This document shows positions 832 through 63,976 of a stretch of 64,000 nucleotides of DNA, piece after piece. The notes beneath the pieces were generated by a model. The model saw only the letters and a list, made by a program, of their open reading frames with translations, had not been told where the DNA came from and made no database searches. The stretch comes from Heptranchias perlo (lineage: Eukaryota). The translations under genes and the position numbers were made by a program. Within the stretch, counting starts at the first letter, position 1, and every line of letters starts with the position of its first letter. The DNA is taken from NCBI RefSeq assembly GCF_035084215.1, contig NC_090351.1, positions 33,790,001 through 33,854,000 of the forward strand, read 5' to 3'.

Positions 832-1155
832 CGTAAGATATTTGTAGTCGTAAGTTAAACCTTGGATCGATGCCAGATTGTTCAATACCACAGCTGTACC
901 ATCCTGTATCTCCCGAGCGAAGAGCCTTCATAGTAACAACGAATATTCCTTCTCTCTTGTTATCTGTGATTGACATTCTTCCTCGCTGTCCATCTTGCTC
1001 ACTTGTTTTTACTAAAACTGAACAACTACTAGTCCAGCCATGACACCAGTATTTCACATATGACCAGTACGTATGTTTGTCATAGTGACAGTCTATTGTG
1101 ATCGCTCTTCCCACAACTCCATTTACATTTTTTTTTGCCCACAATGCACCTGAAA
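832..1155 (-). CDS. Receptor copy 0, exon 2: CD300/pIgR/TREM-type Ig V domain (remaining exons lie left of the window)
   Basis: Acceptor tcttctcag|; VSGALWAKK..ITIDCHY..VKYWCHGWTSSCSVLV..DTGWYSCG; donor G|GTACTT; phase 1/1, 324 bp. Confidence 0.92.
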
Positions 1156-1299
1156 CTGAGAAGACAGCACTTCAGAAATTGAACAGGAAGTAACTGCTAA
1201 ATACAAACAGATACATTTTTATAAGAACTTCCACTGTGTACAGAAGAATCTCTCCACTACGTCCATTAATACAGTTGAATTCCTTGTAGTTTGTGATGA

Positions 1300-1392
1300 A
1301 AGAAAGAACATTAATTTCGTGCCTTATCACATCCTCACGATGTCCTAAAGCACTTCCCAGCCAGTGAATTACTTTTGAAGTGTCGTCACTAT
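1300..1392 (-). mobile_element. DeuSINE 3' tail fragment (in each unit)
   Basis: Reverse complement of cacttcaaaagtaattcactggctgggaagtgctttaggacatcgtgagg, homologous to the SINE tail at 12240-12326. Confidence 0.65.
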
Positions 1393-1400
1393 CTTTGAAC

Positions 1401-2005
1401 AAGAACAGCAACAACAGCTTGCATTTATATAGCACCGATAACATAGAAACTCAAGCTAAGACATAATCAAAATTAAATGGATACTGAGATAAGGCAGGAG
1501 ATATTAGGAGAGGTGTGTAACAGCCTGGTCAAAGAGGTGGGTTTTAAGGAGGGTCTTAAAGGAGGAGAGGTGGAGGATTTCATACAGGGAATTTCACAAT
1601 GTGGTGCCAAGTTGGTTGAAGGCAAACCCATTCCCACTAATGGTGGGGCAAAGGTAGGGATCGATGCACAAAAGATCACAGTCAGCGGAAGGGAGATTTC
1701 GTGAGGGAGTTGGTGAGTAGGGCTGAAGGAGGTTACTCAAATAGTGAGGGGCCATTTCATGAAGGAATTTAAACACAAGGATGAAAGTTTGAAGTTTTGA
1801 GAGACCGAAAGCCAATGTAGGTCAGCAAGGACAGGGGTGATAGATGAGCGGGACCTGATAGCAGAATTTTGGATGCGTTGATGTTTATGGTGGGTGCAAG
1901 AGGGGAGGCAGGCCAGGAGAACATTGGAATAGTTCAATCTGGAGGCAACAAAGACATGGATGTGGGTTTCAGCAGCAGACGGGTGGAAGTAGGCAGACTT
2001 TGTAA
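1401..2005 (-). mobile_element. L2-clade LINE 3' fragment in receptor intron 1 (in each unit)
   Basis: Translation AETHIHVFVASRLNYSN..LACLP..IQNSA..SITPVLADLHWL..LVFKFLH..APHYLSNLL is the L2 ORF2 C-terminus; (TTG)n-type tail. Confidence 0.85.
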
Positions 2006-2054
2006 TGAACTTGATATCTGCAGGAAAAGTGCTCCAGATTGTCTGTAAGATCAA

Positions 2055-2785
2055 TGAGCAAGACCTCGAGGGTATTAATCACAGGATTATTCCCAGTGCC
2101 ACATGGTAATCAGTATAAGAATAGTAAGATAAGAGAAGTAATTTTGTGACTGGAGAGATGGTTCAGAAGAAAAGGGTTCATATTCCTGGCACCTTGGGAC
2201 CAGGTGTGGAAGAGGAGCATCCTGTAGAGGACGGGAGGAGTTTACTTGAACAGCACCAAGACCAATGGCCTTGCTGGGAGAGGAACTCATGCTGTGGGCA
2301 AAGAGTTTACTCCCAAATGGCAGGAGGGTGGTTAAAAATAAGCTGAAGAGGCACGAGGAAGAGGACGGAGGGCTGAGGATATAGGATAGATAAAAGAGGG
2401 AAATGGGGAGGGGAAAGAGATCAGATCAGAAAGAGGAAGGTTTGAAAAGAGAAAGATTGCCATAACAGAGGCGTGCTTCAGTTGAATGTTCAAAAAGTAT
2501 TCTGCATAAAATTGGCAAGTTGAGGCACAAATATTTATGGGGAGGTTTGATATAATAGAATTAACAGACTCATGGCTTAGAGTAGGGTGAGACTGGGAGT
2601 TTAACATTGCTGGTTACAAAATAGATTAGTCCAAAATGGTGGCGGGGAGGCAGTATTAATCAGAAATTCCATTACAGCATTAAATCATAAAGATGATATG
2701 GGGCTGAATCTACTTGGTTAGAGTTAAAGAAGAAGAAGAAAACGGTTCCTTATTAGGAGAGTAATATCGACCAAACAGTGGGCGT
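2055..2785 (+). mobile_element. Degenerate CR1 LINE fragment (ORF1 esterase end + APE endonuclease start; in each unit)
   Basis: Broken frames resembling TSRVLITGLFPVP, DSWL..DWEFNIAGY, GGGEAVLIR, ESTWLELK, LLGExYRPNSG. Confidence 0.7.
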
Positions 2786-3243
2786 CCTCTCCCAGTGAGG
2801 AACAGTTTCACTGACAGAGCCTCGTTAAACAATATTTCATCGGCTGTACTTTAAATAACGAAAACAGTTGCAAATTTGTGACATTTTCTATTTGAGGGAT
2901 TATTACCACTGCAGTCTTCAGTGTATATTGGCCTTCAGACTACATTATAAAAGTCACTTTTTTACGGATTAAAACTGGTTGCCTTTGCATTTTGATTGTT
3001 GCTTTTGCAGCTTTTAAAAAAATGAAATGGAACCTTTATTTTCCACTCACAATTAAGAATGCATTTTCGTCTGGCAAATAATACAGTGAAAAAGAGATAC
3101 AAGACTATATGCAAATGTACTTCTGCTGAGTATTTTGTGCCTTTACATTTCTCCAAATATTTAAACATCTCTGCTGTTTAAACCATACACGAGACTTAAA
3201 CTAACACTGATTATCTGAATATCCAGCTCTGGCGGTCACTCAC

Positions 3244-3280
3244 CGGGCAGGGAACAAATGAGAAGAATCAGAATCCGCAT
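3244..3280 (-). CDS. Receptor copy 0 (partial gene), exon 1: signal peptide MRILILLICSLP
   Basis: ATG at 3280, hydrophobic leader, phase-1 donor G|GTGAGT at 3243. Confidence 0.85.
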
Positions 3281-11345: not shown

Positions 11346-11351
11346 TTTATT
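11346..11351 (-). terminator. Putative polyadenylation signal AATAAA of the receptor gene (also 28126, 45053, 61979)
   Basis: tttatt on + strand ~90 nt past the predicted stop codon. Confidence 0.5.
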
Positions 11352-11441: not shown

Positions 11442-11489
11442 TCATCTTGCCACGTTGGCCGACCTGTGGTGATCTGATTCGTTGAGTAG
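11442..11489 (-). CDS. Receptor copy A, exon 6: short cytoplasmic tail LLNESDHHRSANVAR*
   Basis: Acceptor attttcactttcag|, phase 0, TGA at 11444-11442, AATAAA ~90 nt downstream. Confidence 0.65.
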   Translation of the reverse strand, partial: LLNESDHHRSANVAR

Positions 11490-11910
11490 CTGAAAGTGAA
11501 AATATTTAATGCATCAGATTCATTGATATTGAGAAGTGTGCGTTATTTTACATGTCAGTTCTGAACAGAATTCTATCTGAAACTGTTAACAAGTTGAGGA
11601 AAGGCCTGCGATAGACTGGAGCTGTGTTGAGATCACACTCCTCCCTCCCCCATCACCATTGCACGTGTGCTGGGAAAAGGTGTCAGTTGTGCCCCTTTTG
11701 CTGGAACACCATTTTCTCACATTCAACATGGGTTTTTCTGCAACCGTGACGGTGGACAGTTGACATCAGAAAACGGTTGACTTTATTAAATATATTTTAG
11801 ATAGTCCAGTTGAGGTTCCCAGCAACAATAGAATTAGGTCTGTGTCTGAGCACCCTGGTGCTCGACTGGATAAACAAATCAGAATGGAATCTTTTCTTGA
11901 CTGTATTAGT

Positions 11911-12326
11911 ACAGCTTGGCTCAGTGGTAGCACTCTCATTTCAGATGTCAAAAGGTTGTGGGTTCAAGTCCCAGTCCAGGGACTTCAGCACATAATCTAG
12001 GCTGGCACTTCAGCACTGTGCTGAGGGAGTGCTCTATTGTCAGATGAAACGTTAATGGAGGGCCCCATCTGTTTGTTCAGGTGGACAGAAAAGATTCCAT
12101 GACACTATTTGAAGAAGAGCAAAGGAGTTCTCCCAATATTCTGGCCAAAACAGATTAACCGGTCATTTATCTCATCTGCTGTGTTTGGGACCTTTCTGTG
12201 TGCAAATTGTCTGCCACTTTTGTCTCCATAACAACAGTAACACTTCAAAAGTAACTCATTGGATGTAAAGAGATTGGGACATCTTGAAGATATAAAAGAG
12301 TCTATATAAACGCAGGTTCTTTCTTT
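11911..12326 (+). mobile_element. Near full-length tRNA-derived DeuSINE (SacSINE1-like) in receptor intron 5 (also +16780, +33707, +50633)
   Basis: A box TGGCTCAGTGG, B box GGTTCAAGTCC, Deu-like core (ctatttgaagaagagc..gctgtgtgcaaatt), tail ..tatataaacgcaggttctttcttt. Confidence 0.85.
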
Positions 12327-12394
12327 ATTATATCTGTGACAAATATTTTTGAAAGAATTTTTGGAGTGTTTCATACAAAGTCCTTAATCCTTAC

Positions 12395-12485
12395 CTTAGT
12401 TTTTTTCGTACACGTTGTGACCGAAACAGTACAAATCACCAGGAGAGCAAAGAGCACCCAGCGTAGCACACTCCACACAATGTAA
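12395..12485 (-). CDS. Receptor copy A, exon 5: transmembrane SYIVWSVLRWVLFALLVICTVSVTTCTKKTK
   Basis: Acceptor tccccttttgctcag|, hydrophobic run followed by basic stop-transfer residues, donor AAG|GTAAGG; phase 2/0. Confidence 0.88.
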
Positions 12486-28221: not shown

Positions 28222-28269
28222 TCATCTTGCCACGTTGGCCGACCTGTGGTGATCTGATTCGTTGAGTAG
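28222..28269 (-). CDS. Receptor copy B, exon 6: cytoplasmic tail
   Basis: Copy of 11442-11489. Confidence 0.65.
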   Translation of the reverse strand, partial: LLNESDHHRSANVAR

Positions 28270-29174
28270 CTGAAAGTGAAAATATTTAATGCATCAGATT
28301 CATTGATATTGAGAAGTGTGCGTTATTTTACATGTCAGTTCTGAACAGAATTCTATCTGAAACTGTTAACAAGTTGAGGAAAGGCCTGCGATAGACTGGA
28401 GCTGTGTTGAGATCACACTCCTCCCTCCCCCATCACCATTGCACGTGTGCTGGGAAAAGGTGTCAGTTGTGCCCCTTTTGCTGGAACACCATTTTCTCAC
28501 ATTCAACATGGGTTTTTCTGCAACCGTGACGGTGGACAGTTGACATCAGAAAACGGTTGACTTTATTAAATATATTTTAGATAGTCCAGTTGAGGTTCCC
28601 AGCAACAATAGAATTAGGTCTGTGTCTGAGCACCCTGGTGCTCGACTGGATAAACAAATCAGAATGGAATCTTTTCTTGACTGTATTAGTACAGCTTGGC
28701 TCAGTGGTAGCACTCTCATTTCAGATGTCAAAAGGTTGTGGGTTCAAGTCCCAGTCCAGGGACTTCAGCACATAATCTAGGCTGGCACTTCAGCACTGTG
28801 CTGAGGGAGTGCTCTATTGTCAGATGAAACGTTAATGGAGGGCCCCATCTGTTTGTTCAGGTGGACAGAAAAGATTCCATGACACTATTTGAAGAAGAGC
28901 AAAGGAGTTCTCCCAATATTCTGGCCAAAACAGATTAACCGGTCATTTATCTCATCTGCTGTGTTTGGGACCTTTCTGTGTGCAAATTGTCTGCCACTTT
29001 TGTCTCCATAACAACAGTAACACTTCAAAAGTAACTCATTGGATGTAAAGAGATTGGGACATCTTGAAGATATAAAAGAGTCTATATAAACGCAGGTTCT
29101 TTCTTTATTATATCTGTGACAAATATTTTTGAAAGAATTTTTGGAGTGTTTCATACAAAGTCCTTAATCCTTAC

Positions 29175-29265
29175 CTTAGTTTTTCTCGTACACGTTGTGA
29201 CCGAAACAGTACAAATCACCAGGAGAGCAAAGAGCACCCAGCGTAGCACACTCCACACAATGTAA
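29175..29265 (-). CDS. Receptor copy B, exon 5: transmembrane (..TCTRKTK allele)
   Basis: Copy of 12395-12485 with one K/R substitution. Confidence 0.88.
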
Positions 29266-30123
29266 CTGAGCAAAAGGGGAGAAATACAAAATCATTCACA
29301 AGAAACGGGATTGCTTTGTGTCTGAAACATTTATCTCCTGTTTACACTGTAATCTTAGTATTTTGTATCAATGTAAAGCCGCAGAACCAAGGGACTTTAG
29401 CTGGGAAACTAAACTGTTGTTTGACTTATGGAGGAAAGTCAACTTTGTGATCATTAGATAAAGGCCAAATGAAGCAAAGTTCATTAACATGTCCACAATG
29501 TGCAGCTATAAAGGCACGGCACAATTTTATAATTGAGGACTTTATAAAAGTGACTGACCATCTGCCTGGGGCCATGTAACAGTGGTAATATGTCTCCTCA
29601 GGGATGATCACAATAACATCAACCTGCAACTGCTCATCTGCACCTTCTTTCAGGCAATTGCTGAGCAGCTGGAAACAGGCAGCCTTCCCGTTCTCTCAGT
29701 TTGGAAACAGTGTATAACATGGGCAAACTGAGAAGGTGAAAATGACGGAGAATGCAAATGCCACTCCAGAATAGTGGAAGGCAAACCAGCATTGCTGGGG
29801 TTTGGCAAGTACAACTCATCTCACGCCATGAGATTAGGTTAGCGGTAAAGTAATGAAGGTGAATAATGCAAACAGCACCACCTGAGGGGTGGCAAAATGG
29901 AGGTGCTTACTTCTTATTCTGATTCTCCACCAACAAAAATAGCACCTTTGTTCGGAAGCCAACACAACAGCATGATGTAAATCCAGCCACCATTTCCATT
30001 ATGGTGAGTTATAGCCTGGATGAGTAAATGTTTGTGAACCCTTGTGCCAAATTTCTTAAAGAACATTTATTCTCTCAGATGGAAACAGTGCCAATCAAAA
30101 CACCAGCAATGAGAACATTGTAC

Positions 30124-30247
30124 CTTTTGCTGGCAGATGTGGAACCTGAAGATGTGGTTCGATTTTCAGTGGAATTGATATTTTTACTTGTGGAACATGG
30201 AGTTGTTGGTGACACTTTTGAATAAACTTCACATTCATATACAAGTC
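30124..30247 (-). CDS. Receptor copy B, exon 4: stalk
   Basis: Copy of 13344-13467 at +16780. Confidence 0.8.
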
Positions 30248-31033
30248 CTATTGAGGCAAGGGAATAAAGTTTAGATTCACCTGATTTTCACTTGTGGTCA
30301 ACCTAGAGAACACTATTGTTAAAAGGAACCTCAGTACTTGAGTAAAATCCTGGTTGGTATATTGGATTTGGATGCTTTCATTTCTGTGTAATTTCCCCTC
30401 TCTGATAGCAAGGAGAGATGCTGCTAACACCTGGCAGCGGCCCATTTTTAGTGATATTTCAGTTATTTCCCCATATCCGAGTGTTTGCATTACAGAATTA
30501 CTATTGGGACAGTTAAAGATCTCGGGTTGGTGGGTCTACAAACCAGATATTCCCTTTTTTGCCCCACGCAAACGTAAAGGAAAGTTAGAGCCAGGGAATG
30601 ATCTCTGCCACCACCGGAAAGTGTATTCCTGGGCGCCTAGCAACCGCGATGCTGCCCTGGAGCGATGTCCTCAGTGGAATAGGAACATCAGCAGTGCATT
30701 GAGCTCATCGGGAAATATTAGACCAATAATTACTGTTGTCGATATTAGTAGACAAGCAGTTAAAATTCGTAAGGCATTCCTCGTTTAAAAGAATGTTTCA
30801 TTCAGAACAGCAGATAAAGGAATGTCACACGCACACATTAAACAGTCGCCTGCTAATACTGACAACGGTCAATTCTAGCCTTTTGGGGTCAGTTTCCTGA
30901 GCTTGCCAAGTGATGGGAAACCTCAGCCACCGGGAGTGGATATCGCATATCAGGGACAGGCTCGCAAACAGATGCAATAGACATTAGTTTTAAAAATTCA
31001 GTTCCCATATTGTTTGTTTAAAGTAACACTTAC

Positions 31034-31357
31034 CAATGCTGCTGATTCGAGCCACATAACTGCAGTTTTTCTCTGATCTGTTCCAGACTGACACATCAAC
31101 CATTTCACTGGATTTTCCTCCATTATTATTTGAGGCTCTGCAGTAATATTGATGATGAACTTGGGTGAAGGAAGAACATTGTAGATCCAGTTTATCAGAT
31201 TCAGAGATCGTTAAATCTTCAGACGTGGCCTTTTTATACCATGTGTACTGAATGGGAAGGGACCCTTGGACAGACTCACAGGAGACTGACACTGAGCCCC
31301 CAAAACATGAGGCACTTGATGGTGATAAAAATCGAAGTACAGGAACAGACACAGATT
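31034..31357 (-). CDS. Receptor copy B, exon 3: C2 domain (GSLPIQY allele)
   Basis: ORF 30990..31352; same splice sites as copy A. Confidence 0.92.
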
Positions 31358-34300
31358 CTGTGGGAAAGAAACAAACATTCAGACACTGACTGACTCTGCT
31401 TCTTGCACTGGATCCAAACTATCCCTGATCTTTAATGGGATGAGAGAGATTAAATAGCCTTCAAAAGCACCTGAAAGAAGAGGAACAATTGTGCAAGTTT
31501 TTGCTTTTTTTGAAAAACAGCAGCATAATTGATCCAGATGGAAATAATCTTCTCATCATTTTTGCTTTGATGAAACCCATCATGAATTTGCCAGGTTGGA
31601 GCAGTCTATGGGGTAGAAATTGGGATGTGTTTTGTTCCAATTCCGGGCGTAAAATGGTGCAACGTATACCAATTGCTGGGCGTGAAGTCCTGTGCCCGAT
31701 TTGCATTGGGGCATGCCCACTGCCCTATTGGTCGACTCTGTTTTTAGGCGTCCCTAGTGGTCGCCTGAAAGCAGCGTTGCATTAATTTAAATATGCAAAT
31801 AAGGGTCCTGGGCATGTTTTAGGAACCTTCTGCAAAATTTTTGAGAAACTAGGCAGAGCATACACCGTGAATGTTCTGACGAGCTTACCCAGCTCTACAG
31901 TGGCCTAACCAGAGTTCCTTAAAGAGACCTGTGGAGATCACTGAAGAATCGCGACTGCGCTCGGTCCCCCAGCGTTTTCCACCGGTGTCCAAGCAGGACT
32001 TTCCTGAGGGCCGCTGGTGAATAGACAGCAGGCTCAAATTTGATCCCCAATGTTGGAAGTAGCCAGCAGCTCGCCTCTATTATCAAAATGAGGCCAATTT
32101 CAGATGAGCCTCAGGCCTCTGGCTTCTTGGGGCGCGCTTTCAGCCTGTCGCTTATTTTGGGTCCAGAAATGAGCCCAAAAGAATTTCCAACCCTATTGTT
32201 TTCAGGTGGGGGTTTGGTCGAATGTTGAATGCATTTCCAGGAATGGCCTGACCCAGGTCCAGTTTGTACCAGAACTCCCTCATATGGGAATTCTGCAACC
32301 AACATCGAAAAATCAAATGCTTTCCAATGTTCATTTTACTTCTGAGACAAAACCAGAATAAGCTTTCCTGTAACTCAGCCAGGCCCTGCCATTTTGGAAC
32401 CTCACCAGCACATCTACATCTCCATGTCTCTCCATCCTGCGAGCAGCCTGAACTACCATGTCTAATATCAGAACATAGCAGGGCTCCAGATCAGGAGAGC
32501 AGTAATGATACTGGGGATGTGTCAATTTGAAAATCAGGGCTAACAATTTCTCTCAGTGGTAGGTTACCAGCCTCCAATGCTGTTTAATTGTTTGACACTC
32601 GAACATGAGCTAGTTGGAGAAAGTCCGAGAAACCACAGCAGAATATGAGTGCAAAAAACTGGAGATTTCTACACATGTTCTGTGGCTTTAGACAGGGAGA
32701 GTAATTATGATTGGTTTCAGCGAACTGCAGCTGAAAAGCAACCCTTTATCTCAGTTTTATTGGAGCAGCCAAAGCACAAAGGTGACCAGCTTGACACTTT
32801 CAATGAGAATTGTCAGGTCTTCAGTGCTGTTGCGGCCACACCCTGTTCTCAGAAACTGATTAGGACAAAATTTGCTTTGTGACTGGACAGTCTCTCTTTG
32901 AAATGTTACTGCTTGCCAGCCTGTCCCTCAGCACTTCCCTACTCACCCACCCAGATCCATTGAAAAATCAATAGGAGGTGTAGAGGATGTAGAAGATTGT
33001 ATTTAGTATTTGATCCTTCAGGAGGTTTGCTTAGGAGGAAGATAATGGGCCATAATTTGCTGTGGCAGAGCATCCAACGGTGTTTGCCGTTGGTTAGACT
33101 TGCCCTTGCTCGTTTAGGTTTCAAATTGTTTGCGGGTAAGTTACTGAAAGTGCGAGTTGATAACATCGCAGCGAGGGAAACAGGGCATCTGGGACCTGAG
33201 TGGACAGAGCAAGAAACCATGTATCTCCTTCACCAGTCAGATTCAAGGATTTTGAAATAATCAATGCAAGGATTGAGAAGGAAGTGTAAATGACAATGGA
33301 TTGAATGTCCAATCAGGTACAGAAAGAGAAATAAAGAGAGGGAAAGAAGGATTGGATGAAGAGAGAAAGAAAAAGGAAATGTACATTTTTAAAATCTCCA
33401 ACTACAATTAAAACCTGAAGGATTGAAACTCCACACTTGTAAGTTTTCAGTGCCAAAGAGGTTGCTTGGCAGTAAATAACACTTATCACGTTGTTAAAAG
33501 GGTACTCAGACTTGAAATGACTTGACTCAACTTACTGTGGAGAGTTTAATTTGTATCTACCGTGCAAATACAGCAACTTCATGCCGTTCAATGTATTTCA
33601 ATGGTGCGGCAGACAGCAAGATGCCCTTTTTGTGAAGCTAAGGGCAGAATGGTGCAACTTGGACAGCAACTTTTGGATTTCTGTGTTTAACCAGGCATCT
33701 GCCCCTCGCCTGAATTTGCTGCACCATTTGCGTGTAAATAATGGCGATCGCCATTAGTCTCACCGCTATTTTGACAGCAAAATCTGGCCCAACGTGACAA
33801 CATGAATAAAGAGGCTTCTTTTACCATCAAGAGAGTGATCTAGCTTTTCAATTTTAAGTTTAGCTTGCTTGTAAAGTTGAACTGTATTGTGCTGACCTAA
33901 GTATCTGGTTGATTCTGTATGCCTCCCATCAGATCAGGAAACCTACAAAAATCTGTTACGCTCTTGTGGATTGATTCCATTTTTAGTGTTTTCTAGGTAT
34001 TTATCCCATTAAAGACTACTTGCTTCTTACTGCTTTTGTTATTGTCTTTCTATTAGTTTTTGGCCTGAATGTAAACATCTGACAGTGTGAAACTTGATAC
34101 AGTTCAGAGACAGGAAGATGTGTTGAGCATCCATGTGAGGTCTGGTGTAATACACTGCAGTTAAAGTAACTGTTGGTCCCATAATACGTGAAATTTTTGG
34201 TTGGATAGTTGGACAGGCCACGAATTGCGTGTGAGCAACACGAGTCGTATTTCCAGACCTCTGCCCACTTCCTGGAAGACTCTGCACTGCTGCGGAGCCT

Positions 34301-34391
34301 CGGAAAATCAGTGCTGTATTTTTCTTCCCAGATGAAACATTGAACAGACATTTTAGTCGTGTATAATAAAGTATATCACTGAGAAAAGTAC

Positions 34392-34715
34392 CGTAAGATA
34401 TTTGTAGTCGTAAGTTAAACCTTGGATCGATGCCAGATTGTTCAATACCACAGCTGTACCATCCTGTATCTCCCGAGCGAAGAGCCTTCATAGTAACAAC
34501 GAATATTCCTTCTCTCTTGTTATCTGTGATTGACATTCTTCCTCGCTGTCCATCTTGCTCACTTGTTTTTACTAAAACTGAACAACTACTAGTCCAGCCA
34601 TGACACCAGTATTTCACATATGACCAGTACGTATGTTTGTCATAGTGACAGTCTATTGTGATCGCTCTTCCCACAACTCCATTTACATTTTTTTTTGCCC
34701 ACAATGCACCTGAAA
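34392..34715 (-). CDS. Receptor copy B, exon 2: V domain
   Basis: Translation identical to other copies (ORF 34039..34704). Confidence 0.92.
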
Positions 34716-36803
34716 CTGAGAAGACAGCACTTCAGAAATTGAACAGGAAGTAACTGCTAAATACAAACAGATACATTTTAATAAGAACTTCCACTGTGTA
34801 CAGAAGAATCTCTCCACTACGTCCATTAATACAGTTGAATTCCTTGTAGTTTGTGATGAAAGAAAGAACATTAATTTCGTGCCTTATCACATCCTCACGA
34901 TGTCCTAAAGCACTTCCCAGCCAGTGAATTACTTTTGAAGTGTCGTCACTATCTTTGAACAAGAACAGCAACAACAGCTTGCATTTATATAGCACCGATA
35001 ACATAGAAACTCAAGCTAAGACATAATCAAAATTAAATGGATACTGAGATAAGGCAGGAGATATTAGGAGAGGTGTGTAACAGCCTGGTCAAAGAGGTGG
35101 GTTTTAAGGAGGGTCTTAAAGGAGGAGAGGTGGAGGATTTCATACAGGGAATTTCACAATGTGGTGCCAAGTTGGTTGAAGGCAAACCCATTCCCACTAA
35201 TGGTGGGGCAAAGGTAGGGATCGATGCACAAAAGATCACAGTCAGCGGAAGGGAGATTTCGTGAGGGAGTTGGTGAGTCGGGCTGAAGGAGGTTACTCAA
35301 ATAGTGAGGGGCCATTTCATGAAGGAATTTAAACACAAGGATGAAAGTTTGAAGTTTTGAGAGACCGAAAGCCAATGTAGGTCAGCAAGGACAGGGGTGA
35401 TAGATGAGCGGGACCTGATAGCAGAATTTTGGATGCGTTGATGTTTATGGTGGGTGCAAGAGGGGAGGCAGGCCAGGAGAACATTGGAATAGTTCAATCT
35501 GGAGGCAACAAAGACATGGATGTGGGTTTCAGCAGCAGACGGGTGGAAGTAGGCAGACTTTGTAATGAACTTGATATCTGCAGGAAAAGTGCTCCAGATT
35601 GTCTGTAAGATCAATGAGCAAGACCTCGAGGGTATTAATCACAGGATTATTCCCAGTGCCACATGGTAATCAGTATAAGAATAGTAAGATAAGAGAAGTA
35701 ATTTTGTGACTGGAGAGATGGTTCAGAAGAAAAGGGTTCATATTCCTGGCACCTTGGGACCAGGTGTGGAAGAGGAGCATCCTGTAGAGGACGGGAGGAG
35801 TTTACTTGAACAGCGCCAAGACCAATGGCCTTGCTGGGAGAGGAACTCATGCTGTGGGCAAAGAGTTTACTCCCAAATGGCAGGAGGGTGGTTAAAAATA
35901 AGCTGAAGAGGCACGAGGAAGAGGACGGAGGGCTGAGGATATAGGATAGATAAAAGAGGGAAATGGGGAGGGGAAAGAGATCAGATCAGAAAGAGGAAGG
36001 TTTGAAAAGAGAAAGATTGCCATAACAGAGGCGTGCTTCAGTTGAATGTTCAAAAAGTATTCTGCATAAAATTGGCAAGTTGAGGCACAAATATTTATGG
36101 GGAGGTTTGATATAATAGAATTAACAGACTCATGGCTTAGAGTAGGGTGAGACTGGGAGTTTAACATTGCTGGTTACAAAATAGATTAGTCCAAAATGGT
36201 GGCGGGGAGGCAGTATTAATCAGAAATTCCATTACAGCATTAAATCATAAAGATGATATGGGGCTGAATCTACTTGGTTAGAGTTAAAGAAGAAGAAGAA
36301 AACGGTTCCTTATTAGGAGAGTAATATCGACCAAACAGTGGGCGTCCTCTCCCAGTGAGGAACAGTTTCACTGACAGAGCCTCGTTAAACAATATTTCAT
36401 CGGCTGTACTTTAAATAACGAAAACAGTTGCAAATTTGTGACATTTTCTATTTGAGGGATTATTACCACTGCAGTCTTCAGTGTATATTGGCCTTCAGAC
36501 TACATTATAAAAGTCACTTTTTTACGGATTAAAACTGGTTGCCTTTGCATTTTGATTGTTGCTTTTGCAGCTTTTAAAAAAATGAAATGGAACCTTTATT
36601 TTCCACTCACAATTAAGAATGCATTTTCGTCTGGCAAATAATACAGTGAAAAAGAGATACAAGACTATATGCAAATGTACTTCTGCTGAGTATTTTGTGC
36701 CTTTACATTTCTCCAAATATTTAAACATCTCTGCTGTTTAAACCATACACGAGACTTAAACTAACACTGATTATCTGAATATCCAGCTCTGGCGGTCACT
36801 CAC

Positions 36804-36840
36804 CGGGCAGGGAACAAATGAGAAGAATCAGAATCCGCAT
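36804..36840 (-). CDS. Receptor copy B (28222-36840), exon 1: signal peptide
   Basis: Same as 3244-3280 at +33560. Confidence 0.85.
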
Positions 36841-45148: not shown

Positions 45149-45196
45149 TCATCTTGCCACGTTGGCCGACCTGTGGTGATCTGATTCGTTGAGTAG
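45149..45196 (-). CDS. Receptor copy C, exon 6: cytoplasmic tail
   Basis: Copy of 11442-11489 at +33707. Confidence 0.65.
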   Translation of the reverse strand, partial: LLNESDHHRSANVAR

Positions 45197-46101
45197 CTGA
45201 AAGTGAAAATATTTAATGCATCAGATTCATTGATATTGAGAAGTGTGCGTTATTTTACATGTCAGTTCTGAACAGAATTCTATCTGAAACTGTTAACAAG
45301 TTGAGGAAAGGCCTGCGATAGACTGGAGCTGTGTTGAGATCACACTCCTCCCTCCCCCATCACCATTGCACGTGTGCTGGGAAAAGGTGTCAGTTGTGCC
45401 CCTTTTGCTGTGACACCATTTTCTCACATTCAACATGGGTTTTTCTGCAACCGTGACGGTGGACAGTTGACATCAGAAAACGGTTGACTTTATTAAATAT
45501 ATTTTAGATAGTCCAGTTGAGGTTCCCAGCAACAATAGAATTAGGTCTGTGTCTGAGCACCCTGGTGCTCGACTGGATAAACAAATCAGAATGGAATCTT
45601 TTCTTGACTGTATTAGTACAGCTTGGCTCAGTGGTAGCACTCTCATTTCAGATGTCAAAAGGTTGTGGGTTCAAGTCCCAGTCCAGGGACTTCAGCACAT
45701 AATCTAGGCTGGCACTTCAGCACTGTGCTGAGGGAGTGCTCTATTGTCAGATGAAACGTTAATGGAGGGCCCCATCTGTTTGTTCAGGTGGACAGAAAAG
45801 ATTCCATGACACTATTTGAAGAAGAGCAAAGGAGTTCTCCCAATATTCTGGCCAAAACAGATTAACCGGTCATTTATCTCATCTGCTGTGTTTGGGACCT
45901 TTCTGTGTGCAAATTGTCTGCCACTTTTGTCTCCATAACAACAGTAACACTTCAAAAGTAACTCATTGGATGTAAAGAGATTGGGACATCTTGAAGATAT
46001 AAAAGAGTCTATATAAACGCAGGTTCTTTCTTTATTATATCTGTGACAAATATTTTTGAAAGAATTTTTGGAGTGTTTCATACAAAGTCCTTAATCCTTA
46101 C

Positions 46102-46192
46102 CTTAGTTTTTCTCGTACACGTTGTGACCGAAACAGTACAAATCACCAGGAGAGCAAAGAGCACCCAGCGTAGCACACTCCACACAATGTAA
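46102..46192 (-). CDS. Receptor copy C, exon 5: transmembrane
   Basis: Copy of 12395-12485 at +33707 (R allele). Confidence 0.88.
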
Positions 46193-47050
46193 CTGAGCAA
46201 AAGGGGAGAAATACAAAATCATTCACAAGAAACGGGATTGCTTTGTGTCTGAAACATTTATCTCCTGTTTACACTGTAATCTTAGTATTTTGTATCAATG
46301 TAAAGCCGCAGAACCAAGGGACTTTAGCTGGGAAACTAAACTGTTGTTTGACTTATGGAGGAAAGTCAACTTTGTGATCATTAGATAAAGGCCAAATGAA
46401 GCAAAGTTCATTAACATGTCCACAATGTGCAGCTATAAAGGCACGGCACAATTTTATAATTGAGGACTTTATAAAAGTGACTGACCATCTGCCTGGGGCC
46501 ATGTAACAGTGGTAATATGTCTCCTCAGGGATGATCACAATAACATCAACCTGCAACTGCTCATCTGCACCTTCTTTCAGGCAATTGCTGAGCAGCTGGA
46601 AACAGGCAGCCTTCCCGTTCTCTCAGTTTGGAAACAGTGTATAACATGGGCAAACTGAGAAGGTGAAAATGACGGAGAATGCAAATGCCACTCCAGAATA
46701 GTGGAAGGCAAACCAGCATTGCTGGGGTTTGGCAAGTACAACTCATCTCACGCCATGAGATTAGGTTAGCGGTAAAGTAATGAAGGTGAATAATGCAAAC
46801 AGCACCACCTGAGGGGTGGCAAAATGGAGGTGCTTACTTCTTATTCTGATTCTCCACCAACAAAAATAGCACCTTTGTTCGGAAGCCAACACAACAGCAT
46901 GATGTAAATCCAGCCACCATTTCCATTATGGTGAGTTATAGCCTGGATGAGTAAATGTTTGTGAACCCTTGTGCCAAATTTCTTAAAGAACATTTATTCT
47001 CTCAGATGGAAACAGTGCCAATCAAAACACCAGCAATGAGAACATTGTAC

Positions 47051-47174
47051 CTTTTGCTGGCAGATGTGGAACCTGAAGATGTGGTTCGATTTTCAGTGGA
47101 ATTGATATTTTTACTTGTGGAACATGGAGTTGTTGGTGACACTTTTGAATAAACTTCACATTCATATACAAGTC
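47051..47174 (-). CDS. Receptor copy C, exon 4: stalk
   Basis: Copy of 13344-13467 at +33707. Confidence 0.8.
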
Positions 47175-47960
47175 CTATTGAGGCAAGGGAATAAAGTTTA
47201 GATTCACCTGATTTTCACTTGTGGTCAACCTAGAGAACACTATTGTTAAAAGGAACCTCAGTACTTGAGTAAAATCCTGGTTGGTATATTGGATTTGGAT
47301 GCTTTCATTTCTGTGTAATTTCCCCTCTCTGATAGCAAGGAGAGATGCTGCTAACACCTGGCAGCGGCCCATTTTTAGTGATATTTCAGTTATTTCCCCA
47401 TATCCGAGTGTTTGCATTACAGAATTACTATTGGGACAGTTAAAGATCTCGGGTTGGTGGGTCTACAAACCAGATATTCCCTTTTTTGCCCCACGCAAAC
47501 GTAAAGGAAAGTTAGAGCCAGGGAATGATCTCTGCCACCACCGGAAAGTGTATTCCTGGGCGCCTAGCAACCGCGATGCTGCCCTGGAGCGATGTCCTCA
47601 GTGGAATAGGAACATCAGCAGTGCATTGAGCTCATCGGGAAATATTAGACCAATAATTACTGTTGTCGATATTAGTAGACAAGCAGTTAAAATTCGTAAG
47701 GCATTCCTCGTTTAAAAGAATGTTTCATTCAGAACAGCAGATAAAGGAATGTCACACGCACACATTAAACAGTCGCCTGCTAATACTGACAACGGTCAAT
47801 TCTAGCCTTTTGGGGTCAGTTTCCTGAGCTTGCCAAGTGATGGGAAACCTCAGCCACCGGGAGTGGATATCGCATATCAGGGACAGGCTCGCAAACAGAT
47901 GCAATAGACATTAGTTTTAAAAATTCAGTTCCCATATTGTTTGTTTAAAGTAACACTTAC

Positions 47961-48284
47961 CAATGCTGCTGATTCGAGCCACATAACTGCAGTTTTTCTC
48001 TGATCTGTTCCAGACTGACACATCAACCATTTCACTGGATTTTCCTCCATTATTATTTGAGGCTCTGCAGTAATATTGATGATGAACTTGGGTGAAGGAA
48101 GAACATTGTAGATCCAGTTTATCAGATTCAGAGATCGTTAAATCTTCAGACGTGGCCTTTTTATACCATGTGTACTGAATGGGAAGGGACCCTTGGACAG
48201 ACTCACAGGAGACTGACACTGAGCCCCCAAAACATGAGGCACTTGATGGTGATAAAAATCGAAGTACAGGAACAGACACAGATT
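47961..48284 (-). CDS. Receptor copy C, exon 3: C2 domain (Q allele)
   Basis: ORF 47917..48279. Confidence 0.92.
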
Positions 48285-51200
48285 CTGTGGGAAAGAAACA
48301 AACATTCAGACACTGACTGACTCTGCTTCTTGCACTGGATCCAAACTATCCCTGATCTTTAATGGGATGAGAGAGATCAAATAGCCTTCAAAAGCACCTG
48401 AAAGAAGAGGAACAATTGTGCAAGTTTTTGCTTTTTTTGAAAAACAGCAGCATAATTGATCCAGATGGAAATAATCTTCTCATCATTTTTGCTTTGATGA
48501 AAACCATCATGAATTTGCCAGGTTGGAGCAGTCTATGGGGTAGAAATTGGGATGTGTTTTGTTCCAATTCCGGGCGTAAAATGGTGCAACGTATACCAAT
48601 TGCTGGGCGTGAAGTCCTGTGCCTGATTTGCATTGGGGCATGCCCACTGCCCTATTGGTTGACACTATTTTTAGGCGTCCCTAGTGGTCGCCTGAAAGCA
48701 GCGTTGCATTAATTTAAATATGCAAATAAGGGTCCTGGGCATGTTTTAGGAACCTTCTGCAAAATTTTTGAGAAACTAGGCGGAGCATACACCGTGAATG
48801 TTCTGACGAGCTTACCCAGCTCTACAGCGGCCTAACCAGAGTTCCTTAAAGAGACCCGTGGAGATCACTGAAGAATCGCGACTGCGCTCGGTCCCCCATC
48901 GTTTTCCACCGGTGTCCAAGCAGGACGTTCCTGAGGGCCGCTGGTGAATAGACAGCAGGCTCAAATTTGATCCCCAATGTTGGAAGTAGCCAGCAGCTCG
49001 CCTCTATTATCAAAATGAGGCCAATTTCAGATGAGCCTCAGGCCTCTGGCTTCTTGGGGCGCGCTTTCAGCCTGTCGCTTATTTTGGGTCCAGAAATGAG
49101 CCCAAAAGAATTTCCAACCCTATTGTTTTCAGGTGGGGGTTTGGTCGAATGTTGAATGCATTTCCAGGAATGGCCTGGCCCAGGTCCACTTTGTACCAGA
49201 ACTCCCTAATATGGGAATTCTGCAACCAACATCGAAAAATCAAATGCTTTCCAATTTTCATTTTACTTCTGAGACAAAACCAGAATAAGCTTTCCTGTAA
49301 CTCAGCCAGGCCCTGCCATTTTGGAACCTCACCAGCACATCTACATCTCCATGTCTCTCCATCCTGCGAGCAGCCTGAACTAACATGTCTAATATCAGAA
49401 CAGAGCAGGGCTCCAGATCAGGAGAGCAGCAATGATACTGGGGATGTGTCAATTTGAAAATCAGGGCTAACAATTTCTCTCAGTGGTAGGTTACCAGCCT
49501 CCAATGCTGTTTAATTGTTTGACACTCGAACATGAGCTAGTTGGAGAAAGTCTGAGAAACCACAGCAGAATATGAATGCAAAAAACTGGAGATTTCTACA
49601 CATGTTCTGTGGCTTTAGACAGGGAGAGTAATTGTGATTGGTTTCAGCGAACTGCAGCTGAAAAGGAACCCTTTATCTCAGTTTTATGGGAGTAGCCAAA
49701 GCACAAAGGTGACCAGCTTGACACTTTCAATGAGAATTGTCAGGTCTTCAGTGCTGTTGCGGCCACACCCTGTTTTCAGAAACTGATTAGGACAAAATTT
49801 GCTTTGTGACTGAACAGTCTCTCTTTGAAATGTTACTGCTTGCCGACCTGTCCCTCAGCACTTCCCGACTCACCCACCCAGATCCATTGAAAAATCAATA
49901 GGAGGTGTAGAGGAGGTAGAAGATTGTATTTAGTATTTGATCCTTCAGGAGGTTTGCTTGGGAGGAAGATAATGGGCCATAATTTGCTGTGGCAGAGCAT
50001 CCAACGGTGTCTGCCGTTAGTTAGACTTGCCCTTGCTCGTTTAGGTTTCAAATTGTTTGCGGGTAAGTTACTGAAAGTGCGAGTTGATAACATCGCAGCG
50101 AGGGAAACAGGGCATCTGGGACCTGAGTGGACAGAGCAAGAAACCATGTATCTCCTTCACCAGTCAGATTCAAGGATTTTGAAATAATCAATGCAAGGAT
50201 TGAGAAGGAAGTGTAAATGAGAATGGATTGAATGTCCAATCAGGTACAGAAAGAGAAACAAAGAGAGGGAAAGAAGGATTGGATGAAGAGAGAGAGAAAA
50301 AGGAAATGTACATTTTTAAAATCTCCAAATACAATTAAAACCTGAAGGATTGAAACTCCACACTTGTACGTTTTCAGTGCCAAAGAGGTTGCTTGGCAGT
50401 AAATAACACTTATCACGTTGTTAAAAGGGTACTCAGACTTGAAATGACTTGACTCAACTTACTGTGGAGAGTTTAATTTGCATCTACCGTGCAAATACAG
50501 CAACTTCATGCCGTTCAATGTATTTCAATGGTGCGGCAGACAGCAAGATGCCCTTTTTGTGAAGCTAAGGGCAGAATGGTGCAACTTGGACAGCAACTTT
50601 TGGATTTCTGTGTTTAACCAGGCATCTGCCCCTCGCCTGAATTTGCTGCACCATTTGCGTGTAAATAATGGCGATCGCCATTAGTCTCACCGCTATTTTG
50701 ACAGCAAAATCTGGCCCAACGTGACAACATGAATAAAGAGGCTTCTTTTACCATCAAGAGAGTGATCGAGCTTTTCAATTTTAAGTTTAGCTCGCTTGTA
50801 AAGTTGAACTGTATTGTGCTGACCTAAGTATCTGGTTGATTCTGTATGCCTCCCATCAGATCAGGAAACCTACAAAAATCTGTTACGCTCTTGTGGATTG
50901 ATTCCATTTTTAGTGTTTTCTAGGTATTTATCCCATTAAAGACTACTTGCTTCTTACTGCTTTTGTTATTGTCTTTCTATTAGTTTTTGGCCTGAATGTA
51001 AACATCTGACAGTGTGAAACTTGATACAGTTCAGAGACAGGAAGATGTGTTGAGCATCCATGTGAGGTCTGGTGTAATACACTGCAGTTAAAGTAACTGT
51101 TGGTCCCATAATACGTGAAATTTTTGGTTGGATAGTTGGACAGGCCACGAATTGCGTGTGAGCAACACGAGTCGTATTTCCAGACCTCTGCCCACTTCCT

Positions 51201-51318
51201 GGAAGACTCTGCACTGCTGCGGAGCCTCGGAAAATCAGTGCTGTATTTTTCTTCCCAGATGAAACATTGAACAGACATTTTAGTCGTGTATAATAAAGTA
51301 TATCACTGAGAAAAGTAC

Positions 51319-51642
51319 CGTAAGATATTTGTAGTCGTAAGTTAAACCTTGGATCGATGCCAGATTGTTCAATACCACAGCTGTACCATCCTGTATCTCC
51401 CGAGCGAAGAGCCTTCATAGTAACAACGAATATTCCTTCTCTCTTGTTATCTGTGATTGACATTCTTCCTCGCTGTCCATCTTGCTCACTTGTTTTTACT
51501 AAAACTGAACAACTACTAGTCCAGCCATGACACCAGTATTTCACATATGACCAGTACGTATGTTTGTCATAGTGACAGTCTATTGTGATCGCTCTTCCCA
51601 CAACTCCATTTACATTTTTTTTTGCCCACAATGCACCTGAAA
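51319..51642 (-). CDS. Receptor copy C, exon 2: V domain
   Basis: ORF 50966..51631, identical translation. Confidence 0.92.
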
Positions 51643-53730
51643 CTGAGAAGACAGCACTTCAGAAATTGAACAGGAAGTAACTGCTAAATACAAACAGATA
51701 CATTTTTATAAGAACTTCCACTGTGTACAGAAGAATCTCTCCACTACGTCCATTAATACAGTTGAATTCCTTGTAGTTTGTGATGAAAGAAAGAACATTA
51801 ATTTCGTGCCTTATCACATCCTCACGATGTCCTAAAGCACTTCCCAGCCAGTGAATTACTTTTGAAGTGTCGTCACTATCTTTGAACAAGAACAGCAACA
51901 ACAGCTTGCATTTATATAGCACCGATAACATAGAAACTCAAGCTAAGACATAATCAAAATTAAATGGATACTGAGATAAGGCAGGAGATATTAGGAGAGG
52001 TGTGTAACAGCCTGGTCAAAGAGGTGGGTTTTAAGGAGGGTCTTAAAGGAGGAGAGGTGGAGGATTTCATACAGGGAATTTCACAATGTGGTGCCAAGTT
52101 GGTTGAAGGCAAACCCATTCCCACTAATGGTGGGGCAAAGGTAGGGATCGATGCACAAAAGATCACAGTCAGCGGAAGGGAGATTTCGTGAGGGAGTTGG
52201 TGAGTAGGGCTGAAGGAGGTTACTCAAATAGTGAGGGGCCATTTCATGAAGGAATTTAAACACAAGGATGAAAGTTTGAAGTTTTGAGAGACCGAAAGCC
52301 AATGTAGGTCAGCAAGGACAGGGGTGATAGATGAGCGGGACCTGATAGCAGAATTTTGGATGCGTTGATGTTTATGGTGGGTGCAAGAGGGGAGGCAGGC
52401 CAGGAGAACATTGGAATAGTTCAATCTGGAGGCAACAAAGACATGGATGTGGGTTTCAGCAGCAGACGGGTGGAAGTAGGCAGACTTTGTAATGAACTTG
52501 ATATCTGCAGGAAAAGTGCTCCAGATTGTCTGTAAGATCAATGAGCAAGACCTCGAGGGTATTAATCACAGGATTATTCCCAGTGCCACATGGTAATCAG
52601 TATAAGAATAGTAAGATAAGAGAAGTAATTTTGTGACTGGAGAGATGGTTCAGAAGAAAAGGGTTCATATTCCTGGCACCTTGGGACCAGGTGTGGAAGA
52701 GGAGCATCCTGTAGAGGACGGGAGGAGTTTACTTGAACAGCACCAAGACCAATGGCCTTGCTGGGAGAGGAACTCATGCTGTGGGCAAAGAGTTTACTCC
52801 CAAATGGCAGGAGGGTGGTTAAAAATAAGCTGAAGAGGCACGAGGAAGAGGACGGAGGGCTGAGGATATAGGATAGATAAAAGAGGGAAATGGGGAGGGG
52901 AAAGAGATCAGATCAGAAAGAGGAAGGTTTGAAAAGAGAAAGATTGCCATAACAGAGGCGTGCTTCAGTTGAATGTTCAAAAAGTATTCTGCATAAAATT
53001 GGCAAGTTGAGGCACAAATATTTATGGGGAGGTTTGATATAATAGAATTAACAGACTCATGGCTTAGAGTAGGGTGAGACTGGGAGTTTAACATTGCTGG
53101 TTACAAAATAGATTAGTCCAAAATGGTGGCGGGGAGGCAGTATTAATCAGAAATTCCATTACAGCATTAAATCATAAAGATGATATGGGGCTGAATCTAC
53201 TTGGTTAGAGTTAAAGAAGAAGAAGAAAACGGTTCCTTATTAGGAGAGTAATATCGACCAAACAGTGGGCGTCCTCTCCCAGTGAGGAACAGTTTCACTG
53301 ACAGAGCCTCGTTAAACAATATTTCATCGGCTGTACTTTAAATAACGAAAACAGTTGCAAATTTGTGACATTTTCTATTTGAGGGATTATTACCACTGCA
53401 GTCTTCAGTGTATATTGGCCTTCAGACTACATTATAAAAGTCACTTTTTTACGGATTAAAACTGGTTGCCTTTGCATTTTGATTGTTGCTTTTGCAGCTT
53501 TTAAAAAAATGAAATGGAACCTTTATTTTCCACTCACAATTAAGAATGCATTTTCGTCTGGCAAATAATACAGTGAAAAAGAGATACAAGACTATATGCA
53601 AATGTACTTCTGCTGAGTATTTTGTGCCTTTACATTTCTCCAAATATTTAAACATCTCTGCTGTTTAAACCATACACGAGACTTAAACTAACACTGATTA
53701 TCTGAATATCCAGCTCTGGCGGTCACTCAC

Positions 53731-53767
53731 CGGGCAGGGAACAAATGAGAAGAATCAGAATCCGCAT
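53731..53767 (-). CDS. Receptor copy C (45149-53767), exon 1: signal peptide
   Basis: Same as 3244-3280 at +50487. Confidence 0.85.
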
Positions 53768-62074: not shown

Positions 62075-62122
62075 TCATCTTGCCACGTTGGCCGACCTGT
62101 GGTGATCTGATTCGTTGAGTAG
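62075..62122 (-). CDS. Receptor copy D, exon 6: cytoplasmic tail
   Basis: Copy of 11442-11489 at +50633. Confidence 0.65.
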   Translation of the reverse strand, partial: LLNESDHHRSANVAR

Positions 62123-63027
62123 CTGAAAGTGAAAATATTTAATGCATCAGATTCATTGATATTGAGAAGTGTGCGTTATTTTACATGTCAGTTCTGAACA
62201 GAATTCTATCTGAAACTGTTAACAAGTTGAGGAAAGGCCTGCGATAGACTGGAGCTGTGTTGAGATCACACTCCTCCCTCCCCCATCACCATTGCACGTG
62301 TGCTGGGAAAAGGTGTCAGTTGTGCCCCTTTTGCTGGAACACCATTTTCTCACATTCAACATGGGTTTTTCTGCAACCGTGACGGTGGACAGTTGACATC
62401 AGAAAACGGTTGACTTTATTAAATATATTTTAGATAGTCCAGTTGAGGTTCCCAGCAACAATAGAATTAGGTCTGTGTCTGAGCACCCTGGTGCTCGACT
62501 GGATAAACAAATCAGAATGGAATCTTTTCTTGACTGTATTAGTACAGCTTGGCTCAGTGGTAGCACTCTCATTTCAGATGTCAAAAGGTTGTGGGTTCAA
62601 GTCCCAGTCCAGGGACTTCAGCACATAATCTAGGCTGGCACTTCAGCACTGTGCTGAGGGAGTGCTCTATTGTCAGATGAAACGTTAATGGAGGGCCCCA
62701 TCTGTTTGTTCAGGTGGACAGAAAAGATTCCATGACACTATTTGAAGAAGAGCAAAGGAGTTCTCCCAATATTCTGGCCAAAACAGATTAACCGGTCATT
62801 TATCTCATCTGCTGTGTTTGGGACCTTTCTGTGTGCAAATTGTCTGCCACTTTTGTCTCCATAACAACAGTAACACTTCAAAAGTAACTCATTGGATGTA
62901 AAGAGATTGGGACATCTTGAAGATATAAAAGAGTCTATATAAACGCAGGTTCTTTCTTTATTATATCTGTGACAAATATTTTTGAAAGAATTTTTGGAGT
63001 GTTTCATACAAAGTCCTTAATCCTTAC

Positions 63028-63118
63028 CTTAGTTTTTCTCGTACACGTTGTGACCGAAACAGTACAAATCACCAGGAGAGCAAAGAGCACCCAGCGTAGC
63101 ACACTCCACACAATGTAA
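63028..63118 (-). CDS. Receptor copy D, exon 5: transmembrane
   Basis: Copy of 12395-12485 at +50633 (R allele). Confidence 0.88.
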
Positions 63119-63976
63119 CTGAGCAAAAGGGGAGAAATACAAAATCATTCACAAGAAACGGGATTGCTTTGTGTCTGAAACATTTATCTCCTGTTTACAC
63201 TGTAATCTTAGTATTTTGTATCAATGTAAAGCCGCAGAACCAAGGGACTTTAGCTGGGAAACTAAACTGTTGTTTGACTTATGGAGGAAAGTCAACTTTG
63301 TGATCATTAGATAAAGGCCAAATGAAGCAAAGTTCATTAACATGTCCACAATGTGCAGCTATAAAGGCACGGCACAATTTTATAATTGAGGACTTTATAA
63401 AAGTGACTGACCATCTGCCTGGGGCCATGTAACAGTGGTAATATGTCTCCTCAGGGATGATCACAATAACATCAACCTGCAACTGCTCATCTGCACCTTC
63501 TTTCAGGCAATTGCTGAGCAGCTGGAAACAGGCAGCCTTCCCGTTCTCTCAGTTTGGAAACAGTGTATAACATGGGCAAACTGAGAAGGTGAAAATGACG
63601 GAGAATGCAAATGCCACTCCAGAATAGTGGAAGGCAAACCAGCATTGCTGGGGTTTGGCAAGTACAACTCATCTCACGCCATGAGATTAGGTTAGCGGTA
63701 AAGTAATGAAGGTGAATAATGCAAACAGCACCACCTGAGGGGTGGCAAAATGGAGGTGCTTACTTCTTATTCTGATTCTCCACCAACAAAAATAGCACCT
63801 TTGTTCGGAAGCCAACACAACAGCATGATGTAAATCCAGCCACCATTTCCATTATGGTGAGTTATAGCCTGGATGAGTAAATGTTTGTGAACCCTTGTGC
63901 CAAATTTCTTAAAGAACATTTATTCTCTCAGATGGAAACAGTGCCAATCAAAACACCAGCAATGAGAACATTGTAC

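Follow-up and report, generated by a model that had tools for sequence, protein, structure and literature searches.

The 64-kb window analyzed here, i.e. the whole stretch of Heptranchias perlo DNA under study, forms a tandem array with a period of ~16.8-16.9 kb and a unit-to-unit identity of 98.5-99.9%. Three whole copies of a receptor gene (B, C and D) were distinguished within it, together with two partial copies at the window edges (A and E). The gene is located on the minus strand, consists of six exons separated by GT-AG introns and encodes a 315-aa product with the predicted order of leader, CD300/pIgR-like V domain, C2 domain, stalk, transmembrane (TM) segment and Tyr-free tail. Features of the distinguished copies are summarized in Table 1. 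An initial annotation of this DNA had described the last two exons (TM and tail) of copy B, with exact coordinates and correctly quoted sequences.

Table 1. Features distinguished within the window
Feature	Position	Strand	Remarks
TM exon, copy B	12485-12395	minus	phase 2 at start, phase 0 at end; AG acceptor, GT donor
Product of TM exon, copy B	12485-12395	minus	(S)YIVWSVLRWVLFALLVICTVSVTTCTKKTK
Last coding exon, copy B	11489-11442	minus	LLNESDHHRSANVAR followed by TGA stop; 15 aa, no Tyr
Arg278 codon, TM exon of copy B	12463-12461	minus	
Stalk exon, copy B	13467-13344	minus	Ser/Thr-rich
C2/I-type Ig exon, copy B	14577-14254	minus	Pfam Ig_2, E 8e-7; R157, versus Q157 in C and D
V-set exon, copy B	17935-17612	minus	CD300/pIgR-like; Pfam V-set, E 7e-11; PDB CD300lf, E 1e-19
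Leader exon, copy B	20060-20024	minus	ATG at 20060
First AATAAA past the stop, copy B	11346..11351	minus	
Copy C, whole six-exon gene	28222..36840	minus	Q157, R297
Copy D, whole gene	45149..53767	minus	coding sequence identical to that of copy C
Copy A, leader and V exons	832..3280	minus	remainder past the left window edge
Copy E, stalk end, TM and tail exons	62075..64000	minus	R297; remainder past the right window edge
Array unit borders	near 9146, 25926, 42714-42834, 59642-59761		

Copies C and D differ from copy B by R157Q and K297R alone. Residue 297 is Lys in copy B and Arg in the remaining three copies that contain a TM exon, so the K/R tail variant reported earlier is real. The units are separated by few substitutions, and an insertion of ~120 bp is present at two of the four unit borders; they therefore look like distinct copies and not like an assembly echo. 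The tandem array of whole genes is very recent.

Within the V exon, cysteines C35-C101 and C50-C57 are predicted to pair, as judged by their spacing, and Asp109 is placed in the FG loop. Cysteines 138, 181, 219, 234 and 246 (14577-13344, C2 and stalk exons) are found beyond the canonical C2 pair, and most of them are kept in the family. These five residues could form added disulfides or dimer links, while Cys288 and Cys295 are possible palmitoylation sites.

A GC-rich (56-60%) intergenic block, at about 4000-9100 of the window, recurs in every unit. By eye it resembles a decayed DNA transposon with a Myb/SANT-like stretch (5612-6409), without clear terminal inverted repeats; neither the block nor the intergenic ORFs of the window gave a convincing Pfam or Atlas match. 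An Rfam scan of window positions 1-44000 returned no matches.

Affiliation with the MDIR family

Sequence comparison identifies the predicted receptor as a new member of the MDIRs (modular domain immune-type receptors), a known but little-studied family. Both Ig domains are 100% identical to H. perlo RefSeq proteins. In the search with the C2 domain, 87 of the 89 matches came from sharks, rays and skates, and the other two were eel CD22-like proteins. The V domain shares 58-61% identity with skate MDIR2, MDIR3 and MDIR5, and the C2 domain is 58% identical to that of MDIR5. An H. perlo paralogue with the same helix and tail as the window protein (P0018) is 54% identical to MDIR5 over 528 columns, the helix included. 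A search with the TM/tail region returned the three H. perlo proteins and nothing else. In a V-domain tree (64 rows, 106 columns) the sequences group by lineage and not by type; the helix and tail of the window protein are of the MDIR5 type. The family, the MDIR5 protein with the same helix and the second (C2) domain are all additional to the initial annotation.

The available part of PMC3031540 describes MDIRs as multigene activating and inhibitory receptors resembling CD300, TREM and pIgR. The multigene trait is present here, as five copies in the window and a paralogue with an immunoreceptor tyrosine-based inhibitory motif (ITIM), XP_067863712. RefSeq labels MDIR-type proteins as pIgR-like, FcRL5 or CMRF35-like. 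In a weak check, largely confined to journals outside subscription, no published description of this Arg-Trp helix class was found.

Transcripts and gene models

Transcript data came from four runs of one sample, whose contigs were aligned to window positions 9200-20400. The RNA type of the runs is a guess, in keeping with their small word share, as exon-only cover would give, and the contigs cannot be assigned to copy B alone. In the RNA-type contigs each of the five predicted introns is missing, with the joints placed where predicted. Among the joints listed, TM-tail (11489/12395), C2-stalk (13466/14253) and V-C2 (14577/17612) were found in all four runs, stalk-TM (12485/13344) in three and leader-V (17935/20024) in two; several coding contig pieces contain no letters other than those of the window. 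A further 56 joints were recorded, among which minor isoforms may be represented. The receptor gene is real and expressed.

The presence of the TM-tail joint in every run confirms the last exon. The initial annotation had allowed for transcripts with other downstream exons carrying ITIMs; the main transcript, in this one sample and among the joints listed, ends in the Tyr-free exon. Alternative last exons of phase 0 were also sought from the TM donor to the next leader. None of the 26 acceptor candidates led to an ITIM, ITAM or YxxM motif, a weak negative, as the threshold was so strict that it could miss the true last exon.

Abundant 3′ UTR contigs (window 10000-11350) diverge by ~3-5% from the window. 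Of 14 sites checked, nine are unlike all four copies, three match copies D/E and two are undetermined, so part of the RNA derives from a paralogue outside the window or from another allele, whose coding exons are nearly the same. Since RNA contigs reach about position 10000, some copy or allele has a longer 3′ UTR. A contig break at 14439/14470 in runs X1 and X3 coincides exactly with codon 157 (window 14469), where copies C/D depart from copy B by R157Q; this suggests that the R157 and Q157 forms are both expressed, or are allelic. Very high contig depth was observed in intronic segments 11800-12330, 16300-17050 and 17950-18900, where SINE/LINE-like repeats abundant in the transcriptome are located.

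Several RefSeq models raise the question of whether the units act (only) as separate genes, since read-through from a C2 exon to the next V exon could yield multi-repeat receptors or join an ectodomain to an ITIM tail. The C2 donor and the V acceptor are both in phase 1, XP_067863722 and XP_067863880 chain three V-C2 repeats, XP_067863714 sets a V-C2 pair identical to that of the window ahead of the inhibitory gene, and skate MDIR5 itself has the architecture V-C2-V-C2. The repeats of XP_067863722 run Q157-R157-Q157, an order that would agree with copies C, B and A of the window. However, every complete unit owns a leader, stalk, TM segment and tail, the listed joints run C2-stalk-TM-tail with no C2-to-V joint among the 15 listed, and near-identical copies probably mislead gene models commonly. 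We therefore consider read-through very unlikely; with a whole gene in every complete unit and joints that support single units, the three-repeat and V-C2-plus-inhibitory RefSeq models are more probably mis-joined.

Many RefSeq/UniRef entries of sharks named 'pIgR-like' or 'FcRL5' (P0008, P0009, P0094, P0010, P0014 and P0019) look like chained neighbouring MDIR genes, some with an internal TM segment or leader. Such chaining of tandem genes into single models makes database domain counts for MDIRs unreliable.

The helix arginine, the inhibitory paralogue and the candidate adaptor

Six hydrophobic 19-mers (KD of at least 2.3) occur in the six frames of one repeat unit. The TM helix is more than such a chance stretch: splice sites lie on both sides of it, it continues the reading frame of two Ig exons, and RNA-type contigs connect it to them. 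Arg278 is the 7th residue of the best 19-residue hydrophobic window and about the 5th of the ~22 residues between the MDIR aromatic belts; the first Lys on the inner side follows it after 18 uncharged residues (range 14-20, 17 sequences). Its initial placement near the extracellular end thus holds for the outer half of the helix, but not for the very edge. An AlphaFold model of the catshark homologue P0147 (not of the window protein) has one helix, 259-286, which contains Arg267 and does not itself define the membrane borders. Comparison of the TM profile with PDB gave chance matches only. No Tyr is found past Y271, so the tail lacks both ITIM and ITAM, as annotated at the outset.

The TM exon, with its Arg masked, was compared with 135 homologues, which were pooled from the V and C2 matches after removal of two eel proteins and two cluster members. 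The search returned 50 matches in 48 proteins, and Arg occupies the masked position in all of them (50/50; 39/39 distinct helices). By this comparison sharks, rays and skates have retained the Arg of the predicted membrane helix. In the 39 distinct helices, Trp+1 and Leu+7 are invariant like Arg, and two residues on the opposite helix face, Ile+9 and Val-2, are nearly so, while positions -3, -5, -6 and +8 are variable (position -3 is Lys in 16, Asp in 7, Ser in 6 and Asn in 5). The extended conserved motif (W-4, V-2, R, W+1, F+4, L+7, I+9) spans two faces, and the conservation of Trp+1, Leu+7, Ile+9 and Val-2 implies that other helix contacts may matter.

Among the short-tailed Arg-type proteins (n=45), Tyr is present in 11 and a Yxx[LIVM] motif in one. 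Ten stingray and devil-ray tails of the Arg type (P0046, P0047, P0088, P0115, P0121 and others) share a conserved (L/V)VY(K/E) near the end. Its Tyr belongs to no canonical ITIM or ITAM, and it is absent from the window protein.

A second MDIR helix type gave 46 matches, of which 43 lack a charged core residue and 44 are followed by an ITIM-like motif. In H. perlo it is represented by XP_067863712, which is 91% identical to the window copy in the V domain (10/107 residues differ) and 96% in the C2 domain (4/107), several of the differences being located in predicted loops. An identical listed longest contig (42,909,300, i.e. 42.9 Mb, as for the proteins that match the window), adjacent accessions and one chimeric model suggest that this gene is linked to the array. 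It lies outside the window: a tblastn search with eight inhibitory TM/tails gave a best E value of 0.25, in agreement with the initial statement that no inhibitory partner is encoded there. Both the Arg type and the ITIM type are present in 18 of 23 elasmobranch species, as judged by pattern match and, for some, only within fused models. Derivation of the Arg helix from the MDIR inhibitory helix was also considered and is unsupported, as hhalign produced no alignment (0.8%), though short helices align poorly.

In the V-domain tree, whose bootstrap is unsettled with many forks open, the two types are mixed: 18 changes were counted against a shuffled mean of 18, with 7/64 rows placed in neither group because the ITIM pattern matched in or near Arg-type helices. 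A single Arg-type clade is rejected (p-AU 0.0003), and the Arg and ITIM forms of H. perlo cluster together (support 100/91). Ectodomains thus track lineage and the two signalling ends are old, which is the classic paired-receptor pattern. The initial description of an activating receptor is borne out, by inference, by the invariant Arg (50/50), the short tails and the ITIM-bearing partner gene. Paired logic, with a charged helix and short tail set against an ITIM, is textbook knowledge, and GenBank already contains the same helix in MDIR5, which makes the finding only modestly surprising.

Could the Arg-Trp helix be kept instead to anchor the protein at the membrane surface, to self-associate or to pair with the inhibitory paralogue, in which case the receptor would be a non-signalling decoy or modulator, or would use an unknown shark adaptor? 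The founding MDIR paper reportedly put MDIR5 among the forms without activating or inhibitory motifs. The conserved motif, moreover, spans two helix faces and so goes beyond the basic residue, besides which mammalian adaptor assembly needs little, according to the sections of PMC1440944 available. Against this, Lys never replaces Arg in the 39 distinct helices, though position -3 is freely K, D, S or N, which speaks against simple anchoring, as this would tolerate Lys; and the strict split between Arg with a short tail and an uncharged helix with an ITIM, across 18 species, is that of paired receptors. We regard a role of this kind as rather unlikely.

We propose that the shark MDIR with the invariant helix Arg is probably the activating half of a receptor pair and docks on a zeta-family ITAM adaptor, with about even chances for CD3-zeta (CD247) and a shark FcR-gamma-like chain. 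By mammalian rules, Arg278 would contact the two aspartates located close to the outer end of the adaptor dimer, ligand clustering would lead to ITAM phosphorylation and Syk/ZAP70 signalling, and the ITIM paralogue would oppose activation via SH2 phosphatases.

The assignment to the zeta family draws on rules given in the accessible sections of PMC1440944. Wherever an FcR-gamma partner has a basic residue, this is an N-terminal Arg, whereas in human type I partners of DAP12 it is a more central Lys; a K-to-R change reduces DAP12 assembly to 15%, and swapping either basic residue sharply lowers adaptor assembly. For a type I protein, an Arg located in the outer helix half hence favours the FcR-gamma/zeta class over DAP12. 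The basic residue lies at depth 3-4 in FcalphaRI/KIR2DL4 and 7-12 in DAP12 partners (portions of PMC1440944 and PMC8102735), and the depth of Arg278 is intermediate between the two.

The available portion of a 2014 survey of shark data records no FcR-gamma, LRC or pIgR homologues (PMC4016189), but that survey also missed MDIR-type receptors, so its FcR-gamma negative is weak. In the accessible part of PMC11372145, bamboo shark T cells express cd247 as a T-cell marker (61% vs 3%), and all 16 listed places of fcer1g in the single-cell marker file are in two bony-fish sheets, none being in the shark sheet. A search of the elephant shark genome supplement, as available (PMC3964593), returned no matches. 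The N-terminal-Arg rule, an Arg that is never Lys and the 18 uncharged residues inward of it favour a zeta-family adaptor. Four points speak against a plain FcR-gamma reading, namely the intermediate depth of the Arg, the absent NxxR motif of LRC helices, the lack of LRC matches to the helix profile and the survey without shark FcR-gamma, and no choice is made here between an FcR-gamma-like chain and CD247.

DAP12 serves the CD300/TREM relatives of mammals, and the receptor might likewise be activating but coupled to DAP10 or DAP12, with their central aspartate, and not to a zeta-family chain. Its Arg is 7th in the best hydrophobic window, within the 7-12 range of DAP12 partners, and NKG2D-DAP10 and rodent Ly49-DAP12 are cases in which Arg is used (excerpts of PMC1440944). 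However, NKG2D and Ly49 are type II proteins, in a type I protein the K-to-R change leaves 15% assembly (same excerpts), and an Arg followed by 18 uncharged residues belongs to the outer part of the helix. Neither tyrobp nor hcst of shark is among the marker rows listed in the available file of PMC11372145, a weak point. Coupling to DAP10 or DAP12 appears unlikely.

A zeta-family partner also admits a broader, tentative idea, to which we give roughly one chance in several: elasmobranchs may possess their own, independently evolved Arg-Trp TM module, which has stayed the same since sharks and rays diverged and has been joined to CD300-like ectodomains by repeated recombination. In a lineage from which FcR-gamma and LRC genes are reportedly missing, this module would wire innate paired receptors to CD3-zeta or to an unrecognised zeta-like chain. 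If so, Arg/zeta coupling of innate receptors would predate FcR-gamma, and an activating role of skate MDIR5 would have gone unnoticed. Of the candidates for the main family of paired activating/inhibitory receptors in cartilaginous fish, MDIRs are the best. Their invariant Arg offers a one-residue test of the ITAM adaptor used by the earliest innate receptors of jawed vertebrates, and bears on whether the Arg/FcR-gamma code has one origin or several.

Comparison with known receptor systems

Receptors of the NxxR type (LILRA, NKp46, GPVI, FcalphaRI and OSCAR; Xenopus XFL TM1, ILR and SLAM-like) have, as the window protein does, an N-terminal Arg in a type I helix. They share with MDIRs a short tail and uncharged, ITIM-bearing partners, with the Arg of the window protein somewhat deeper than position 3-4. 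That one NxxR-type helix can serve several receptor families has precedent in the available parts of PMC2413239, PMC4536121 and PMC6557307, the last of which defines the LRC module by an Asn three residues ahead of Arg (NxxR) and a DYT lead-in. The MDIR helix lacks NxxR, with Ser at -3 in the window protein and Asn in 5/39 helices, and has no DYT lead-in; the tail has a separate exon in the window gene, whereas XFL TM1 and its tail are encoded by one exon, and the ectodomain is not of the LRC type. A helix profile (17 helices, 30 columns, hence of limited reach) searched against 1.84 billion proteins gave no LRC/XFL match, its 15 matches being 14 elasmobranch MDIR-like proteins and one unnamed repetitive protein. 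The initial designation 'LRC-style, FcR-gamma' thus holds only partly: it suits a type I helix with Arg in its outer half, but does not agree with the absent NxxR, the lack of an LRC profile match and the survey without shark FcR-gamma (PMC4016189, as far as available). The MDIR Arg module may work like the LRC helix, but its homology to that helix is unsupported.

pIgR and teleost pIgR-like proteins have a related V domain, and RefSeq calls the H. perlo proteins 'polymeric immunoglobulin receptor-like'. However, pIgR is built of tandem V domains and the window receptor of V-C2, and its V domain scores about 38-40 bits with pIgR as against 74 bits with CD300lf (single domain).

Mouse CD300lf is the best single-domain PDB match to the V domain, and the fold of the catshark homologue (AlphaFold model) aligns to it with a TM-score of 0.84 at 40% identity, which upholds the CD300-like ectodomain of the initial annotation. 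Further points of likeness are the second Cys pair (C35, C50, C57, C101; bonds by spacing), the KYWC motif (KYWCH) and the paired activating/inhibitory layout, the activating side of the mammalian CD300 family being represented by CD300b/c/e. In contrast, CD300 has a single Ig domain and the window receptor a spliced-in extra C2, the helix charge is an outer Arg instead of a central Lys or Glu, and pocket residues Trp89 and Met100 of CD300lf are replaced by Ser and Arg. Window Gly107 and Asp109 fall, in an ungapped match, on CD300lf Gly96 and Asp98, if the chain index equals the numbering of the paper. The latter two residues hold the metal ion of the phosphocholine site (available part of PMC6166816), and the FG-loop Asp is present in 111 of 189 distinct MDIR-family loops. 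As a lead only, this weakly hints that the V domain may bind a lipid head group or microbial surface in a metal-dependent manner.

Among the skate MDIRs, for which we know of no function test, MDIR2 is a single V-C2 receptor and, like MDIR3, combines Tyr motifs with the second helix type. Compared with skate MDIR5 (ABC86800.1, Rostroraja (Raja) eglanteria), the window protein has a single V-C2 pair in place of two, a longer stalk, and Ser instead of Lys at helix position -3, and unlike MDIR5 its genes form a very recent tandem array. The two proteins have in common a CD300/pIgR-like V domain, a C2 domain of one subtype, the same Arg-Trp helix and a Tyr-free end, of 21 residues in MDIR5.
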